From the UHGV virus genome UHGV-1980648: a DNA stretch of 12,883 bases. One strand, written 5' to 3'. Below, piece by piece: positions 6,079-12,805 of this stretch. Position 1 is the stretch's first letter. Every line of letters begins with the position of its first letter. The notes below the pieces were generated by a model. That model ran no database searches, was not told the DNA's origin, and was given only the letters and a program-made list of their open reading frames with translations. This stretch comes from a virus. Position numbers and translations under genes: made by a program.

Positions 6079-6140
6079 CTTCGCACGCCAGCAAAATCTG
6101 GCGTCGGGATTTGCACCCCGGATATTCAACCGCGACAGAC

Positions 6141-6162
6141 ACACGCCGCGAGCGTGTTTTTT
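6141..6162 (+). terminator. Intrinsic terminator or attenuator in the leader upstream of the ORF6N gene
   Basis: ACACGC-cgcga-GCGTGT followed by TTTTTTGTT; preceded by two further hairpins at 6086-6103 and 6104-6120. Confidence 0.5.
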
Positions 6163-6326
6163 GTTGTCGTAAGCACACGCACATCTGAATTATGGTGGGG
6201 CGTATGGGGGAGCCGAAAGGCTCGCCGGTTGGTTGATCCGGTAGTGCAAACCCTGTACGTCTCACCACCCAAAGATTTGCACCTGACGGTGGTGATAGTT
6301 AAATTCATCAACCAGAGGGCGTTGTC

Positions 6327-7028
6327 ATGGCGACTCAAATTTCCGTTGAAACTCTTTCCCCAATTGCCTACAACCAGATCCCCGTAATTACTACAGAATT
6401 ATTGGCGCAATTGTATGGCACTGAAACAGTCAATATAAAAATGAATTTTTCCCGTAACTCTGCGCGATTTGTACAGGGAAAACATTTCTTTAAGTTGGAA
6501 GGGAATGAACTACGTGAGTTTAAGCACAGACTATCTTTAAGCGAGTCTGTTAGCCGCGAGGTAACAGAAAGTTACTCTGTGAAAATCGCCCGCAATGTTC
6601 GCTCCCTCATCCTCTGGACAGAACGCGGCGCAGCCCGTCACGCAAAAATGCTCGAAACCGATCAGGCGAGGGAAGTGTTCGAAAAACTGGAAGACTGCTA
6701 TTTCAGCCAGGGAAAAACAGCACCAACCGAACAGCAGCCGCAGATTCAGCCACAATTCACAGCCGAGGAAATCATCCTCCTTTGCTACATGCAACTCTGG
6801 ATGGAAAAAGCCCAGGACCTTAGCAAGCAGCTGTACCCCATAATGAAAGAGCTGAACTCCTCATACACGAACAAGCTGTATGACATTGCGTTTGAGACCA
6901 TCTACATGGTGACGAAGAACAGAGACGCGCTACTAAGGGAGGTAACACGTCTCGACATGTCAAGTTCCGTTATCCAGCGGGCCATGCCAATGCTGAAAAG
7001 CCTGCGGGCAAGACAATTTGAATTCTGA
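6327..7028 (+). CDS. ORF6N-domain protein, putative antirepressor-like regulator
   Basis: 233 aa; N-terminal IPVITTELLAQLYGTETVNIKMNFSRNSARFVQGKHFFKLEGNELREFK...LWTERGAARHAKMLETDQAREVFEKLEDCYF fits the ORF6N pattern from memory; GAGGG RBS. Confidence 0.55.
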   Translation: MATQISVETLSPIAYNQIPVITTELLAQLYGTETVNIKMNFSRNSARFVQGKHFFKLEGNELREFKHRLSLSESVSREVTESYSVKIARNVRSLILWTERGAARHAKMLETDQAREVFEKLEDCYFSQGKTAPTEQQPQIQPQFTAEEIILLCYMQLWMEKAQDLSKQLYPIMKELNSSYTNKLYDIAFETIYMVTKNRDALLREVTRLDMSSSVIQRAMPMLKSLRARQFEF

Positions 7029-8544: not shown

Positions 8545-8779
8545 TATTCAGCAGGTGCCTGAACGCATGGCTTTATTCAGGTCGTCTGGAAAAGCGCATG
8601 AGCAGCGTAATAGCGGAGTTCATGGCGAAGAGTATATGAACAGATTATTCGAATGCTATATGAGACTGAAGCACGGAGATCGCTATGACCTGACACGTGA
8701 TGCTGACGGTTTCTACTGCCGTGAAGTTGTGAAACGAATGTTTGAAGTGTGGTGTCATTGTAAAGGATGGGGGCTGTGA
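8537..8779 (+). CDS. Hypothetical Cys-rich protein, translationally coupled to the next gene
   Basis: ATG 8537 (MRDIQQV...) with AAGGGGA RBS, overlapping the ninH stop; 80 aa; its stop overlaps the next start as TGATG. Confidence 0.4.
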   Translation: MRDIQQVPERMALFRSSGKAHEQRNSGVHGEEYMNRLFECYMRLKHGDRYDLTRDADGFYCREVVKRMFEVWCHCKGWGL

Positions 8780-9393
8780 TGCGGCTAACCCCAGTATTCG
8801 GCATGGTTAACTTTATTAATGATGCTCATTTCCGCCGCATATGGAGGCATCCGAAGAAAATCATTAACTCTCGTCAGAAAGCATGGGTTCACTACATGCT
8901 ACAGGTATGGGGAAATGTTAACGCTGGTGATGATTCTCCTTGTGGTGCAATTAACGTTATTGGGCGACTGATGATTCGCAGTCAGTGGAGCGATGACAAA
9001 GCTAAGCAGATTGAGTCTGTTGTCATGCGTCTGTATGAAGAAGACGGACTACGTGGAGATGAACTCCATCAGAAAGCCCGAGAACTGGTCATCCCTCAGT
9101 CATCGGCAGGTAATATCATTGCTCTCGCCAAAGAATCCGATGATGCTGCTTTCGTTGAACGTGTGATGGTTGAGACCTTTCATCGTGAAAGCCCTGTCCG
9201 TGATGTAGCTATTAGGCGATATTGCAATCGCGACAGCACGCAAGATATCGCCAGGATGATTTCTCAGATAACAGGAGTTGATATTCAGTATTGCCGGAGG
9301 CGGGTCGTGTGGTGCGAGAGGGTCCTTGATTCAGAAATGTTTTATGCAATGAAGCGAGAATTGGAGAAAGAACTTCTAGTGATTGCTGGATGA
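8779..9393 (+). CDS. Putative late-gene antiterminator (Q-position protein); identity by position only
   Basis: 204 aa from ATG 8779 (the ORF track starts at 8767); last gene before a pR'-like promoter and tR'-like terminator; no clear similarity to lambda Q by eye. Confidence 0.35.
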   Translation: MRLTPVFGMVNFINDAHFRRIWRHPKKIINSRQKAWVHYMLQVWGNVNAGDDSPCGAINVIGRLMIRSQWSDDKAKQIESVVMRLYEEDGLRGDELHQKARELVIPQSSAGNIIALAKESDDAAFVERVMVETFHRESPVRDVAIRRYCNRDSTQDIARMISQITGVDIQYCRRRVVWCERVLDSEMFYAMKRELEKELLVIAG

Positions 9394-9417
9394 TGCAAAA
9401 TATTTTTTGTAAATGCG

Positions 9418-9446
9418 TTGCTTTCGAGAAATGAAAGTAGTATGTT
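9418..9446 (+). promoter_or_regulatory. Late promoter candidate (pR'-like)
   Basis: TTGCTT (9418-9423), 17-nt spacer, TATGTT (9441-9446), starting 25 bp after the stop of the Q-position gene. Confidence 0.4.
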
Positions 9447-9553
9447 TTGTGTATGCTCGGAGCAAAAGCGCACTGAGAAGCGAAAGAGAAATCCTGATTT
9501 ACCTCGGTCGTCGATAATATTTAGGATCGGCATACTGGCTAGATTAGGTAAAG

Positions 9554-9584
9554 GCCTCGGCAGAAATGTCGGGGCTTTTTGTTT
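9554..9584 (+). terminator. tR'-like intrinsic terminator
   Basis: Hairpin 9554-9575 (GCCTCGGC-agaaat-GTCGGGGC, two G-U pairs) followed by TTTTTGTTTG. Confidence 0.5.
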
Positions 9585-9657
9585 GCACAACAGGTAAGAG
9601 CATTGAACCCGCAGACCTCGTGGAATTGGTGAAAGGTGTGCGCAGTGCTCTTATCGT

Positions 9658-9784
9658 TGTGGTGAAGCTCAATGGCGAGCTAGCAGACAGGCGACTGTGA
9701 AAATACTAGTCATGTAGCGGATCGCCGCGCGTATTGTAATCGGCAGCGCACCGATGGGAGCTGGTTCGATTCCGGCCGCCACAA
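9658..9784 (+). other. tRNA-like element: degenerate or insert-bearing tRNA, possibly an ileX/ileZ-like remnant
   Basis: Canonical T-arm GCTGG-TTCGATT-CCGGC at 9760-9776; 3' acceptor CGCCACA pairs with TGTGGTG at 9658-9664; D-arm-like GCTC-aatggc-GAGC; AGGCGACT resembles the E. coli tRNA-Ile2 anticodon stem; no canonical anticodon arm and length about 127 nt. Confidence 0.25.
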
Positions 9785-9926
9785 TCCAAACTGAGCCGTA
9801 GCCTCTGGGTGTCCTGAATTCATCAGTGATAGTTACGCTGCGGCCTTCTACATACGATTTTTGTGAAAAGCGGGTGGCAAGAGGCTGCGAAATTTTTAAA
9901 TACCTCACAATTCCACAGCTTGATGA

Positions 9927-10123
9927 TTGTCTGGCTGCCGGAGAATTTGTTAAAAATTGCATCGCGTGGTGAATCCCCCTCAGCGGCGGGGCATCTGGCA
10001 AAGTGTATGATCCAGCGAACATGCAAATTCAGTAGCCAGGCTGAATTTACCGGGAGGCACCTGGCACCATGCGACAGACAGAAATTAGGCTATACTTCAG
10101 CCCCTCTCCGGAGGGGCTTTTCT
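9927..10123 (+). repeat. Paralogous unit A: promoter-like box, structured core, intrinsic terminator (candidate small RNA gene)
   Basis: TTGTCT (9927-9932), 17-nt spacer, TTAAAAAT; core closed by CGCGTGGTG (9963-9971) pairing with CACCATGCG (10065-10073); internal hairpin AAATTCAG/CTGAATTT; terminator at 10099-10123. Confidence 0.5.
10099..10123 (+). terminator. Intrinsic terminator of unit A
   Basis: GCCCCTC-tccg-GAGGGGC followed by TTTTCT. Confidence 0.6.
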
Positions 10124-10312
10124 GTGCAGGATGTGTCACAGTTTCCTGAATTCTGAGTACTGTCCTGTTACTCAGGGTGCTATATTTTCTGACGTGATGA
10201 AAGTCTGCCGGAAGGCGGAACGTATCGGAAATGACCCAGTAGAGAAAACGTTGACTCAGATACCGATGCTGAGTTACCGGGAAACCGGCATCACATGACC
10301 GCTATCCTTCCA

Positions 10313-10335
10313 GGCTCGCTCCGGCGGGCCTTTTT
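10313..10335 (+). terminator. Intrinsic terminator, a third copy of the terminator module with a covarying stem
   Basis: GGCTCGC-tccg-GCGGGCC followed by TTTTT; flanking sequence (gctatccttccag...) is homologous to the 3' ends of units A and B. Confidence 0.55.
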
Positions 10336-10395
10336 ACTGCAGAAAACAGTTTTCCCGTAAAATGCCACGTTACTCACAATTCAGGCTGGCGATTA

Positions 10396-10606
10396 TTGTC
10401 TGGCCAGCGGGAAGTTTGTTAAAAAAATATGGCATGGTGAATCCCCCTGTGCGGAGGGGCATATCAGCGACAGGTGTTTGGTCACACCCCTTATCCTTTC
10501 TGGTGCGGGTTCAGGTGCTGATACTGAACTCACCGGGAGGCACCCTGCACCATGCATGAACGGTACATAGCGCTACTCTCCAGCCCCTCTCCGGAGGGGC
10601 TTTCTT
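10396..10606 (+). repeat. Paralogous unit B: promoter-like box, structured core, intrinsic terminator (candidate small RNA gene)
   Basis: TTGTCT (10396-10401), 17-nt spacer, TTAAAAAAATAT; core closed by GCATGGTG (10432-10439) pairing with CACCATGC (10548-10555); internal hairpin GTTCAG/CTGAAC; shares blocks TGGTGAATCCCCCT and CACCGGGAGGCACC with unit A. Confidence 0.5.
10582..10606 (+). terminator. Intrinsic terminator of unit B
   Basis: GCCCCTC-tccg-GAGGGGC followed by TTTCTTGTTG. Confidence 0.6.
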
Positions 10607-10613
10607 GTTGGAT

Positions 10614-10643
10614 AAAAAAAAGCCCGCGCCGGGAAGCGCGGGT
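10614..10643 (-). terminator. Opposite-facing hairpin with A8 tract (possible leftward terminator, back to back with the unit B terminator)
   Basis: AAAAAAAA then CCCGCGC-cgggaa-GCGCGGG; on the minus strand this reads hairpin followed by a T8 run. Confidence 0.35.
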
Positions 10644-10843
10644 GGCAAGGAATAAACAACAAAACGTGAAGTGATCAATTTTCAGCTGGCGAATAATACC
10701 TGATAGTAATCACTCTGCGCAACTGTATGGTCTTTTTCGTATTGCGGGCTGTAGTCATCCTCCTGTTTCTGAACCCTTGTCCATGACTGACGTCAGCCCG
10801 CACCTTATCTTGATTGCATACACTATCCCTGCCGGGAGGAATA

Positions 10844-12805
10844 ATGGCATTTAAACACTATGACGTGGTCAGGGCATCATCGCCGTCAGACCTCGCAGGA
10901 AAACTGACGCAAAAACTGAAGGAAGGCTGGCAACCCTATGGTAGTCCGATTATCTCAAACGCGGGTTATGGTGCTGAATTTATCCAGGCTATAGTCGCTG
11001 AAGGGGATATGACCTCTCCGGTAGTTTCACCGGGGGGAGATGGTACCCGGACTGTTGTTGTTGAACCAGAATATTACTTTGTCATTGCGCTGGCCGGACA
11101 GTCAAACGGTATGGCGTATGGTGAAGGGCTTCCGCTGCCGGAGACATATGACCGTCCGGACCCGCGTATTAAACAGCTGGCGCGTCGCAGCACTGTCACG
11201 CCGGGTGGTGCGTCCTGTAACTACAATGACATTATTCCTGCGGACCACTGCCTGCATGATGTTCAGGATTTGAGTAAGTTTTCACACCCGAAAGCTAGCG
11301 CAGCTCAGTATGGATGCGTGGGGCAGGGATTACATATCGCGAAGAAATTGTTGCCGTTTATTCCGGCGAATGCCGGTATTCTTCTGGTTCCGTGCTGCCG
11401 TGGTGGTTCTGCATTTTTGGCGGGCGATGAAGGTACCTTCAGCGAATCCACCGGCGCAAGCGAGACCTCGGCACGCTGGGGTGTAGATAAGCCACTGTAC
11501 AAGGACCTGCTTACCCGTACTCAGGCCGCACTGAAGGCTAACCCTAAAAATATTCTGCTTGCAGTGGTCTGGATGCAGGGCGAGTTTGATTTGAAACAGG
11601 GTGCATACGCCACTCAGCCGGGGCTGTTTGATTCCATGGTGGAAAAATATCGTTCTGACCTGTCGGAATTCGGAGGTCAGTGTCTCGGGGGCTCTCCGTC
11701 ATCGGTTCCCTGGATTTGTGGCGACACGACCTACTACTGGAAGCAGACTTATTCTTCGCAATACGATGCGGTGTATGGTGCATACAAGACGAAATCCGCA
11801 AAAAAAATCTTCTTTGTGCCGTTTATGACGGATGAAAACGGGCGAAATGTGGGTACCAACGAGCCGTCAGAAGATCCGGATGTTGCGGATATTGGGTATT
11901 ACGGAGCCGGTGGTCGAACGGACGCCAAAACCTGGACGACGGCCGACCGTAAAACGCATTTTGGATCATGGGCACGTCGTGGGATTATTTCCGACCGTCT
12001 GGCAACGGCGATTCTTGTGCATGCCGGGAGAACCGCTGAATTCATTACCGGAAAACAGCCTGATACGGTGAAGCCCACCGGACCTTCCGGTGAAGGTACG
12101 GAGAGAGAGCCGGAAGCCCCGGTCAGTAACCGAACCCTGATGAGTCTGCTGGCGTCCGGCGAAGACCTGGCATCACAGGGCTGGCGCTATTATCACAAAC
12201 CGGCGAGCGGAGACAATGTTAACAAAAACATTGCTGAAGCGGTGGTCAGTGATGCGGGGGCTACGGGAGGTAAGGCCCTGCAACTGAATAAACCGGAAAA
12301 CCACATCTGGTTTCTGGAGCATGATGCAGCCGGACAGGGAGTGGAGTTACTGAAGAAGGGGGGACGTGTGAGCGTACGGTTTAAGTTGCCGGGTTCACTG
12401 GTGCCGAATCGGTTTGCCCTGGGCATTTACTGGCAGTTGTCGTCCCTGCCGGAGGGAGTGACGCTGGCAGAGGAAGGCAACGACATGCTGATGTCCTTCT
12501 TCCTGCAGACGGATGCGACGAACCTGAACGCGATGTACCACAAGAAGCCGAATGCGAAGCTGGATACGTTCGGGGTCTTTGATAACGGATGGCACACACT
12601 GGCTTTTGAGTTTGCCGGAAACAACAGCATTCAGGTGACGCCGGTACTGGATGAGAAACGGGGGACGCCGTTCACACTGGTGAAATCTCCGGCATCAGGG
12701 GCGGCGGACAAACTGCAACTGACAGGCATATCAAAGGCGGCGACATATACGCTGCTGATTGACAGTGTGAAGGTGGAAGTGAACAACGCGGATGCCGCGG
12801 CATGA
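10844..12805 (+). CDS. nanS-p: Prophage NanS-p-like sialate O-acetylesterase (N-terminal DUF1737-like domain, SGNH/SASA esterase core, C-terminal extension)
   Basis: ATG 10844 with GGGAGGA RBS (the ORF track starts at 10814); 653 aa; MAFKHYDVVRASSPSDLAGKLTQKLKEGWQPYGSPI N-terminus; LAGQSNGMAYGEG block typical of sialate O-acetylesterases; location downstream of Q and the late terminators matches Stx-type prophages, from memory. Confidence 0.8.
   Translation: MAFKHYDVVRASSPSDLAGKLTQKLKEGWQPYGSPIISNAGYGAEFIQAIVAEGDMTSPVVSPGGDGTRTVVVEPEYYFVIALAGQSNGMAYGEGLPLPETYDRPDPRIKQLARRSTVTPGGASCNYNDIIPADHCLHDVQDLSKFSHPKASAAQYGCVGQGLHIAKKLLPFIPANAGILLVPCCRGGSAFLAGDEGTFSESTGASETSARWGVDKPLYKDLLTRTQAALKANPKNILLAVVWMQGEFDLKQGAYATQPGLFDSMVEKYRSDLSEFGGQCLGGSPSSVPWICGDTTYYWKQTYSSQYDAVYGAYKTKSAKKIFFVPFMTDENGRNVGTNEPSEDPDVADIGYYGAGGRTDAKTWTTADRKTHFGSWARRGIISDRLATAILVHAGRTAEFITGKQPDTVKPTGPSGEGTEREPEAPVSNRTLMSLLASGEDLASQGWRYYHKPASGDNVNKNIAEAVVSDAGATGGKALQLNKPENHIWFLEHDAAGQGVELLKKGGRVSVRFKLPGSLVPNRFALGIYWQLSSLPEGVTLAEEGNDMLMSFFLQTDATNLNAMYHKKPNAKLDTFGVFDNGWHTLAFEFAGNNSIQVTPVLDEKRGTPFTLVKSPASGAADKLQLTGISKAATYTLLIDSVKVEVNNADAAA

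Follow-up and report, generated by a model that had tools for sequence, protein, structure and literature searches.

The window analysed here, 12,883 nucleotides (nt) from the viral genome UHGV-1980648, is an Escherichia coli lambdoid prophage. Between a Q-like antiterminator gene and a carbohydrate esterase gene it carries three modules on the plus strand: unit A (9927-10126), unit C (10178-10339) and unit B (10396-10609). A first-pass annotation had taken A and B for a candidate pair of undescribed small RNA (sRNA) genes, of which 'undescribed' cannot stand, since both are full-length members of the Rfam family RF02076 (STnc100). Over 851 bases around the units, the window shows 100% identity with E. 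coli strain G1/2 and with phage PhiR5_2, whose RefSeq and GenBank records annotate no RNA here; the PhiR5_2 record places hypothetical coding sequences over the units. It is because prophage records carry no noncoding RNA feature at this position that the units look unexplained, as had been claimed; the records are indeed silent, but Rfam explains both units.

With curated thresholds, an Rfam scan of the whole window returned four matches, two of them being the units. Unit A aligns to the STnc100 model at 9934-10127 with 138.7 bits (E = 3.5e-31) and unit B at 10403-10612 with 129.9 bits (E = 6.4e-29), each over model positions 1-206 of 206 and at about three times the gathering score of 47 bits. 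Because these matches are full-length and high-scoring, A and B can be regarded, on their sequences, as canonical and already known members of this catalogued prophage sRNA family. The consensus helices of STnc100, namely the closing stem (P1), the 5' hairpin (P2), the internal hairpin (P3), the CCGGG/CCCGG hairpin (P4) and the terminator, can form in both units, and their setting, a prophage location with multiple copies, is that of the family. AsxR, AgvB, Esr41 and other prophage sRNA families gave no match in 9394-10850 at E-values up to 10. An alignment of A with B, which runs to 253 columns and takes in about 30 nt 5' of the -35 element, has a mean column identity of 81%; together with the Rfam E-values this lies far beyond chance and bears out the original view of two paralogous promoter-core-terminator units.

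The putative promoter of unit A (9927-9956) comprises a -35 element TTGTCT (9927-9932) and a -10 element TAAAAA (9951-9956) preceded by TG, as in an extended -10. Unit B repeats this arrangement at 10396-10425, with TTGTCT at 10396-10401 and TAAAAA, again after TG, at 10420-10425. The TTGTCT, 17-nt spacer and A-rich -10 described at first are thus present, the spacer measuring 17 nt if the -10 is read as TTAAAA and 18 nt for TAAAAA. A simple sigma-70 scan did not report either promoter at its threshold; support for both comes from positional conservation in homologues and, by analogy, from the mapped 5' end of PasD2, a relative in enteropathogenic E. coli (EPEC). By the same comparison, the 5' ends of A and B would lie at about 9964 and 10432.

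According to the RF02076 match and the fold, the RNA of unit A (about 160 nt, 9964-10126) contains P1 (9964-9971/10065-10072), P2 (9975-9991), a pseudoknot (9994-9999 with 10035-10040), P3 (10025-10033/10040-10048) and P4 (10050-10064), followed by a variable linker (10073-10098), the terminator (10099-10118) and a U-tract up to 10126. The RNA of unit B (about 175 nt, 10432-10609) is laid out likewise, with P1 (10432-10439/10548-10555), P2 (10443-10459), the pseudoknot (10462-10468 with 10517-10523), a variable hairpin (10473-10488), P3 (10507-10514/10524-10531), P4 (10533-10547, with one mismatch in its CCGGG/CCCUG hairpin), the linker (10556-10581), the terminator (10582-10601) and a U-tract up to 10609. 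Both terminators, which had been recognized as intrinsic at the outset and are confirmed here, are G+C-rich, and the region holds 11 terminator-like sites as against 1.4 +/- 1.2 in shuffles. Single-sequence folds of the units recover P1-P4 and the terminator, with z = -3.13 for A.

Both cores start with (G/A)UGGUGAAUCCCCC. P1 is formed by GCGUGGUG/CACCAUGC in A and by GCAUGGUG/CACCAUGC in B, the single difference being G.U versus A-U. P3 reads AAAUUCAG/CUGAAUUU in A and GGGUUCAG/CUGAACUC in B; two A-U pairs are replaced by G-C and one by G.U, which makes it the sole stem truly covarying between the two units. The stem of the 5' hairpin (CCCC/GGGG) is the same in A and B and shows no covariation; its loop alone differs, and in A the inner pair is a U-C mismatch. 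All three stems had been reported to differ in sequence while keeping their pairing. That description is correct for the internal hairpin, with its two-sided compensation; the closing stem is present and its pairing kept, but A and B differ there at one position and on one side only, and for the 5' hairpin the claim fails. Compensatory change as a signature of selection on RNA structure was therefore overstated in two of three stems. The second of the two conserved primary-sequence blocks exists as ACCGGGAGGCACC; the leading C is found in B only.

In unit B and its close relatives, CCUUUCUGGUG in the variable region (10495-10505) is complementary to the conserved CACCGGGAGG block (10531-10540), and the minimum free energy fold of unit B takes this pairing in place of P4. 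It could represent an alternative conformer that masks the GGGAGG motif.

Unit C and the fold of the family

The stretch between A and B holds a third, diverged STnc100-like sRNA gene and is not a spacer; the first-pass annotation had missed both this gene and the pseudoknot. At permissive thresholds RF02076 matches it over the full length of the model at 10163-10338, with 30 bits (E = 2.6e-4), a score below the gathering score of 47, so that the gene is missed even by the Rfam threshold. Its extended -10 element, TGcTATATT, lies at 10178-10186, and the predicted RNA, of about 145 nt with a 5' end expected at about 10192, contains P1 (10194-10199/10289-10294), P2 (10204-10219), a pseudoknot (10223-10228 with 10263-10268), P3 (10254-10259/10269-10274), P4 (10277-10288), a linker (10295-10311) and a terminator (10312-10331) with a U-tract. 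The fold (z = -2.81) is built from other sequence: P1 is GUGAUG/CAUCAC, with A-U where STnc100 has G-C, P2 is UCUGCC-GGAA-GGCGGA, the pseudoknot UAUCGG/CCGAUG, P3 ACUCAG/CUGAGU and P4 CCGG-GAAA-CCGG. In variants of about 85% identity, P2 changes to CCUGUC-AGCA-GGCAGG by one two-sided compensation and two wobble changes, and an A to G exchange in the pseudoknot gives U.G. Of 5426 complete E. coli genomes, 673 (about 12%), UTI89 among them, carry sequences of the unit C type, which are never annotated as RNA. We regard unit C as a new, diverged member of the same kind as A and B; the 55-amino-acid open reading frame (ORF) over it is probably spurious.

To place the three folds in a family, homologues were collected by scanning for the exact 5' block TGGTGAATCCCCCNNNGCGGNGGGGC, which is therefore invariant by selection. 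The scan found 66 stretches in contigs taken from a single genome per species and at least 120 viral contigs, and the genera represented include Escherichia, Klebsiella, Raoultella, Enterobacter, Kosakonia, Citrobacter, Leclercia, Superficieibacter, Trabulsiella and Erwinia. The 221 instances yielded 128 representatives at 93% identity or less, and 121 non-redundant cores were aligned. The scan had fixed the 5' block only, yet 127 of the 128 representatives also retain GGAGGCA, the 3' block. RNAalifold on the 121 cores supports P1, P2 and P4; the outer pair of P1 is GC in 77 sequences, AU in 38 and GU in 3. Owing to variable loop lengths, P3 was lost and the pseudoknot not shown by MAFFT and RNAalifold; column-based counting was therefore replaced by counting both per sequence in register, with cross-sequence permutation controls. 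For P3, 106 sequences contain 59 distinct outer six-pair stems, with a paired run of 6.47 compared with 3.21 +/- 0.14 when strands are permuted across sequences. Folding the units together with their homologues had been proposed at the start as a check on the stems; the covariation of P1 and P3 in the 121 homologues upholds the closing stem and the internal hairpin and, along with the RF02076 matches, confirms that structured RNA genes and not proteins lie between Q and the late genes.

The additional helix is formed by a strand of 5-8 nt that starts 1-3 nt after P2 and is complementary to the apical loop of P3. Its sequence varies by lineage: the duplex is CUGGC/GCCAG in A and AUCAGC/GCUGAU in B, and elsewhere AAUGAC/GUCAUU, UUAACC/GGUUAA, UUUGAUC/GAUCAAA or CUAG/CUAG. 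Among 106 sequences we counted 73 distinct duplexes with a mean run of 6.68, compared with 5.06 +/- 0.11 in the controls, where the maximum of 300 permutations was 5.48. The pairing is retained in unit C and in PasD2. These counts argue that the STnc100 core contains a covarying H-type pseudoknot, in which the strand following P2 pairs with the P3 loop. The 3' strands of the pseudoknot and of P3 directly adjoin, so stacking of the two helices would be feasible. Where the homologues favour the pseudoknot, the Rfam match, in its nested structure line, instead draws a small local stem after the 5' hairpin.

Arrays and the prophage slot

The homologues carry the marks of independent genes. Counted back from TGGTG, a TANNNT hexamer begins at a distance of 13 nt in 60 of the 128 representatives, and TTG accumulates at -36 to -39, in flanks that have nothing else in common. 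Of 205 instances, 155 have a strict terminator within the next 160 nt; in 97 of these its start lies 20-29 nt beyond the matched core, whose own end falls a few nt past P1. Arrays occur often: at spacings of 256-267 nt the units are adjacent, whereas those of 462-713 nt often conceal more units, and up to four complete tandem units occur beside tRNA genes. Cores and tails are also reassorted. Within our set (loci L003-L188), 35 pairs combine the same linker with unrelated middles, and 39 pairs the same middle with unrelated linkers. This independent exchange suggests recombination between scaffold and seed modules, and thus fits a scaffold-plus-seed design. The pseudoknot and the core/tail modularity are modest structural additions that we did not find in the STnc100 and PasD literature consulted.

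Arrays were also seen in other Enterobacteriaceae prophages, at L073 (2265-3380), L058 (5406-6576), L030 (110-1688) and L026 (4286-4906). The first two adjoin tRNA genes, and in Leclercia isrI is interleaved with the units.

In total, 2679 of 5426 complete E. coli genomes contain a match, at up to nine places per genome, and in 568 genomes at least 80% of the whole three-unit stretch is covered. Upstream lies the Q-like antiterminator gene (8767-9393, plus strand), which matches phrog_753 'anti-termination protein Q-like' (E = 3.5e-68) and gave no Pfam match; the protein in the Q position is of a type outside Pfam coverage. Directly after it, a candidate PR'-tR' module (9418-9582, plus strand) can be read from the sequence: a -35 element TTGCTT (9418-9423), 17 nt, a -10 element TATGTT (9441-9446) and a stem at 9554-9575 with a U-tract. 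The promoter and terminator scan listed neither part; weak terminator-type Rfam matches fall at 9549-9586. A tRNA-like element follows (9658-9784, plus strand). Its score of 26.5 bits falls short of the tRNA gathering score of 29; the acceptor, D and T arms are intact, but a 74-nt insertion takes the place of the anticodon arm. ARAGORN found no tRNA gene anywhere in the window, and the element probably derives, as a remnant or a fusion, from the tRNA genes sited here in Shiga toxin (Stx) phages. Downstream of the units, a NanS-p-like carbohydrate esterase gene (10844-12805, plus strand; Pfam DUF1737, SASA and DUF6645; RefSeq 'SASA family carbohydrate esterase') is followed by holin and lysozyme. 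The array thus fills the accessory ('moron') slot, after Q, PR'-tR' and the tRNA remnant and before the esterase, that stx takes in Stx phages.

Further RNA features were noted in the window. At 6085-6272 (plus strand), isrK (75.4 bits) and C4 antisense RNA (74.4 bits), the other two of the four Rfam matches, stand side by side just 5' of an antirepressor gene with ORF6N and P22_AR_C domains (6327-7028, plus strand). The three form a P1/P7-type RNA immunity module in a lambdoid prophage, in an arrangement that we take to be that of IsrK in Salmonella Gifsy-1. On the minus strand, convergent with unit B, lies a candidate sRNA of about 75 nt (10615-10698) with a -10 element TATTAT (10698-10693); its body is rich in G and U (GUUUUGUUGUUUAUUCCUUGCC), and U8 comes after its terminator (10642-10623). 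It belongs to no Rfam family and closely resembles the EPEC sRNA candidate 'E2348C_1409.E2348C_1408.IGR', detected by RIL-seq, in which interacting RNAs are ligated and sequenced (supplement of PMC8550237). The stretch 10524-10700 is about 87% conserved in many Stx phages.

Proposed function and its alternatives

On the basis of these results, we consider it probable that A, C and B are a tandem array of three independently transcribed STnc100-family sRNA genes whose products are Hfq-dependent base-pairing regulators. Each gene would have a sigma-70 promoter placed for a start at the first base of P1, and each RNA would consist of a structured 5' core of 110-125 nt (P1-P4 and the pseudoknot), an unstructured, pyrimidine-rich linker of 15-28 nt and an intrinsic terminator. 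PasD1 and PasD2 of EPEC are RNAs of 172-173 nt that were found by RIL-seq and give Hfq-dependent Northern bands (PMC8550237); their chimeras involve the last ~50 nt, with a seed UGUGAG just 5' of the terminator (PMC8550237). EcOnc27/sRNA103, an Hfq-binding sRNA, overlaps with the STnc100 copy that follows stx2B (PMC12711010). By analogy with PasD and EcOnc27, A, B and C may act in trans by Hfq-dependent pairing through the variable tail before the terminator. The seeds would then be the linkers at 10073-10098 in A (GACAGACAGAAAUUAGGCUAUACUUC), 10556-10581 in B (AUGAACGGUACAUAGCGCUACUCUCC) and 10295-10311 in C (AUGACCGCUAUCCUUCC). These differ, yet have a common GCUA...pyrimidine-rich end, which could pair with purine-rich ribosome-binding sites. 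The 5' core may serve as a stabilizing or scaffolding domain, in which the compact fold and a 5' end buried in P1 protect the RNA. In lytic growth, polymerase that has left PR' in its Q-modified form would pass through all three terminators.

Several observations weigh against this proposal. Expression in lysogens and Hfq binding of A, B and C are carried over from relatives, and the one relative whose seed is mapped, PasD, represents a diverged subtype that scores below the gathering score and has no P4. The terminators are followed by short, interrupted U-tracts (UUUUCUGUG, UUUCUUGUU), weaker than those of classic Hfq sRNAs. Taken alone, unit B folds no better than its own shuffles (z = -1.22). 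Finally, the near-invariant blocks and the pseudoknot seem to exceed the needs of a stabilizing 5' domain, and base pairing may not be the whole function.

The invariance of the core sequence suggests an additional partner for the core. Tentatively, STnc100-type RNAs can be pictured as modular riboregulators, in which a pseudoknotted scaffold docks a conserved host or phage factor and carries interchangeable 3' seed cassettes, spread in prophage arrays, with unit C as an unrecognized sister subfamily. We hold this broader view to be possible and no more than a minority expectation; if it is true, a larger structural class exists, of which the Rfam family is only the visible tip.

Less likely still, the conserved pseudoknotted core itself is the functional part and binds or sequesters a conserved host or phage factor, whether a protein such as CsrA, ProQ or a component of the ribosome or else a small ligand, with the 3' tail playing a secondary part or only directing the factor to targets. 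Conservation of GGAGGCA in all but one representative across many genera, covariation of the pseudoknot, exposure of GGA/GGGAGG motifs in the P4 loop and often in P2, and the swapping of cores and tails as separate modules are all in keeping with such a role. However, PasD lacks the P4 3' strand yet keeps the fold, and unit C replaces both invariant blocks (P2 CUGCC-GGAA-GGCGG; P4 loop GAAA) with the fold likewise kept, so that the exact block sequences are not indispensable. The PasD RIL-seq data, moreover, reflect Hfq-mediated pairing through the tail. A 2026 preprint (10.64898/2026.08.12.744399) reports an sRNA that guides CsrA in pathogenic E. coli and might bear on a role of the core.

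The discrete-gene model, with three sRNAs acting in trans, also has to be set against one in which the units are cis-acting, riboswitch- or attenuator-like leaders gating the esterase and lysis genes. A structured core with a terminator 20-29 nt further on resembles a terminating riboswitch, the array lies upstream of co-oriented late genes, and in E. coli-type units the P2 3' arm (GGAGGGGC) could, as seen by eye, pair with the terminator 5' arm (GCCCCUC). We nevertheless judge this model very unlikely. Up to four complete units follow one another, each with its own promoter and terminator, and the relatives are abundant, discrete, Hfq-bound RNAs. In 85 of 135 assessable cases the next ORF downstream runs in the same direction; in 34 it is convergent and in 16 none lies within 1 kb, which makes 50 cases with a convergent ORF or none; PasD1, too, is convergent with its neighbour. 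The P2/terminator complementarity is confined to E. coli-type terminators and not conserved elsewhere, and riboswitch-like switching as a family feature was rejected on this ground. Self-cleaving ribozyme topologies, HDV-like or other, were judged unfit, the closing stem joining the 5' and 3' ends.

In lambda 6S RNA and in StxS of the Stx2 phage Sp5, a promoter drives a short, abundant RNA that ends at an intrinsic terminator; these RNAs are made in lysogens, and Q-modified polymerase reads through. The units lie downstream of a Q-like gene, and each has a constitutive-looking promoter, a short transcript and a terminator, which raises the idea of duplicated PR'-tR' late-promoter modules acted on by Q. 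This we find highly improbable. The separate candidate module at 9418-9582 directly after Q would itself yield a short RNA of some 125 nt, comparable to lambda 6S RNA or StxS, whereas the promoter of unit A lies 530 nt from the Q stop with the tRNA remnant in between, and there are three units. Several copies occur per prophage and the family is found with different Q types, whereas PR'-tR' transcripts are single-copy, directly follow Q and have no sequence or structure relation to the units. In Stx2 phages, the family copy is downstream of stx2 and not at PR' (PMC12370729).

That the region encodes small proteins (ORFs 9863-10156, 10131-10298 and 10362-10559) is scarcely credible, despite the hypothetical coding sequences in PhiR5_2 and related records and a match of ORF 10131-10298 to phrog_23557 (E = 2.2e-45): that PHROG family shows only the same ORF call in other phage records, none of the three ORFs has a Pfam match, they run through the terminators, homologues have indels of arbitrary length inside them, and the ATG of ORF 10131-10298 is ATA in the ~85%-identity variants, where compensatory changes keep the RNA helices. 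Translation from the AUG in CACCAUG, 11 nt after GGGAGG, was also considered and rejected, the sequence being CACCAC in most genera.

The finding of A and B as such adds nothing new, as they belong to a catalogued prophage sRNA family with relatives studied in EPEC, enterohaemorrhagic E. coli (EHEC) and Salmonella. It does illustrate that the records of this prophage leave these genes unannotated or under spurious hypothetical ORFs, which is misleading without Rfam. The family-wide pseudoknot and the independent exchange of cores and tails provide concrete hypotheses for the function of a family with one copy next to stx2 (PMC12711010).

Relation to known systems

STnc100 members and relatives have been detected by RNA-seq, Northern blot, Hfq RIL-seq and ChIP-exo (PMC5331693, PMC8550237, PMC10794520, PMC12711010, bioRxiv 10.64898/2026.05.13.724894). 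E. coli O157 strain EDL933 has 11 copies, all transcribed and one Northern-positive (PMC5331693), and Salmonella LT2 has several, whose promoters are bound by RpoD (PMC10794520). With these RNAs, A and B have in common the helices, the CCGGG-AGGCA-CCCGG hairpin, the terminator and the prophage context; nothing essential is different.

PasD1 and PasD2 of EPEC E2348/69 are homologues of EHEC EcOnc13, and PasD is a structural homologue of STnc100 according to its authors (bioRxiv 10.64898/2026.05.13.724894). Like A, B and C, it keeps P1, P3 and the pseudoknot (AAUGAUC/GAUCAUU). The 5' end of PasD2, mapped by RNA-seq, is the first base of P1. The position of PasD2 in E2348/69, after Q and directly upstream of a SASA esterase gene, is that of unit B. 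Unlike A and B, which retain P4, PasD2 scores 41.4 bits, below the gathering score, has a shorter P2 (CCUCCUUGGAGGGG) and lacks the P4 3' strand. Its linker of about 50 nt contains the seed UGUGAG, a motif present in none of the linkers of A, B and C. Judged by these features, the three units belong to the same superfamily as PasD but are not PasD orthologues.

In Stx2 phages, one STnc100 copy lies 75 nt downstream of stx2 and has been found in outer-membrane vesicles (PMC12370729). Overexpression of EcOnc27/sRNA103 raises fimZ and espA transcripts, and variants in the stx2-adjacent copy were reported to predict haemolytic uraemic syndrome (PMC12711010). The EcOnc27/sRNA103 copy is of the same family as the units, is experimentally Hfq-bound and sits, as they do, in the slot that separates the Q/tRNA region from nanS-p (PMC12711010, PMC12370729). 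The prophage described here is without stx and has three sRNA genes in this slot, compared with toxin genes and one sRNA in Stx2 phages. The linkers differ from that of the EcOnc27/sRNA103 copy, and the targets need not be common.

The arrays PrrF1/PrrF2 and Qrr1-5, cited in the Pas preprint, likewise consist of paralogous sRNAs with a common scaffold and a promoter and terminator of their own. Unlike the members of those arrays, the siblings described here differ mainly in the presumed seed, are phage-borne and are reshuffled by recombination.

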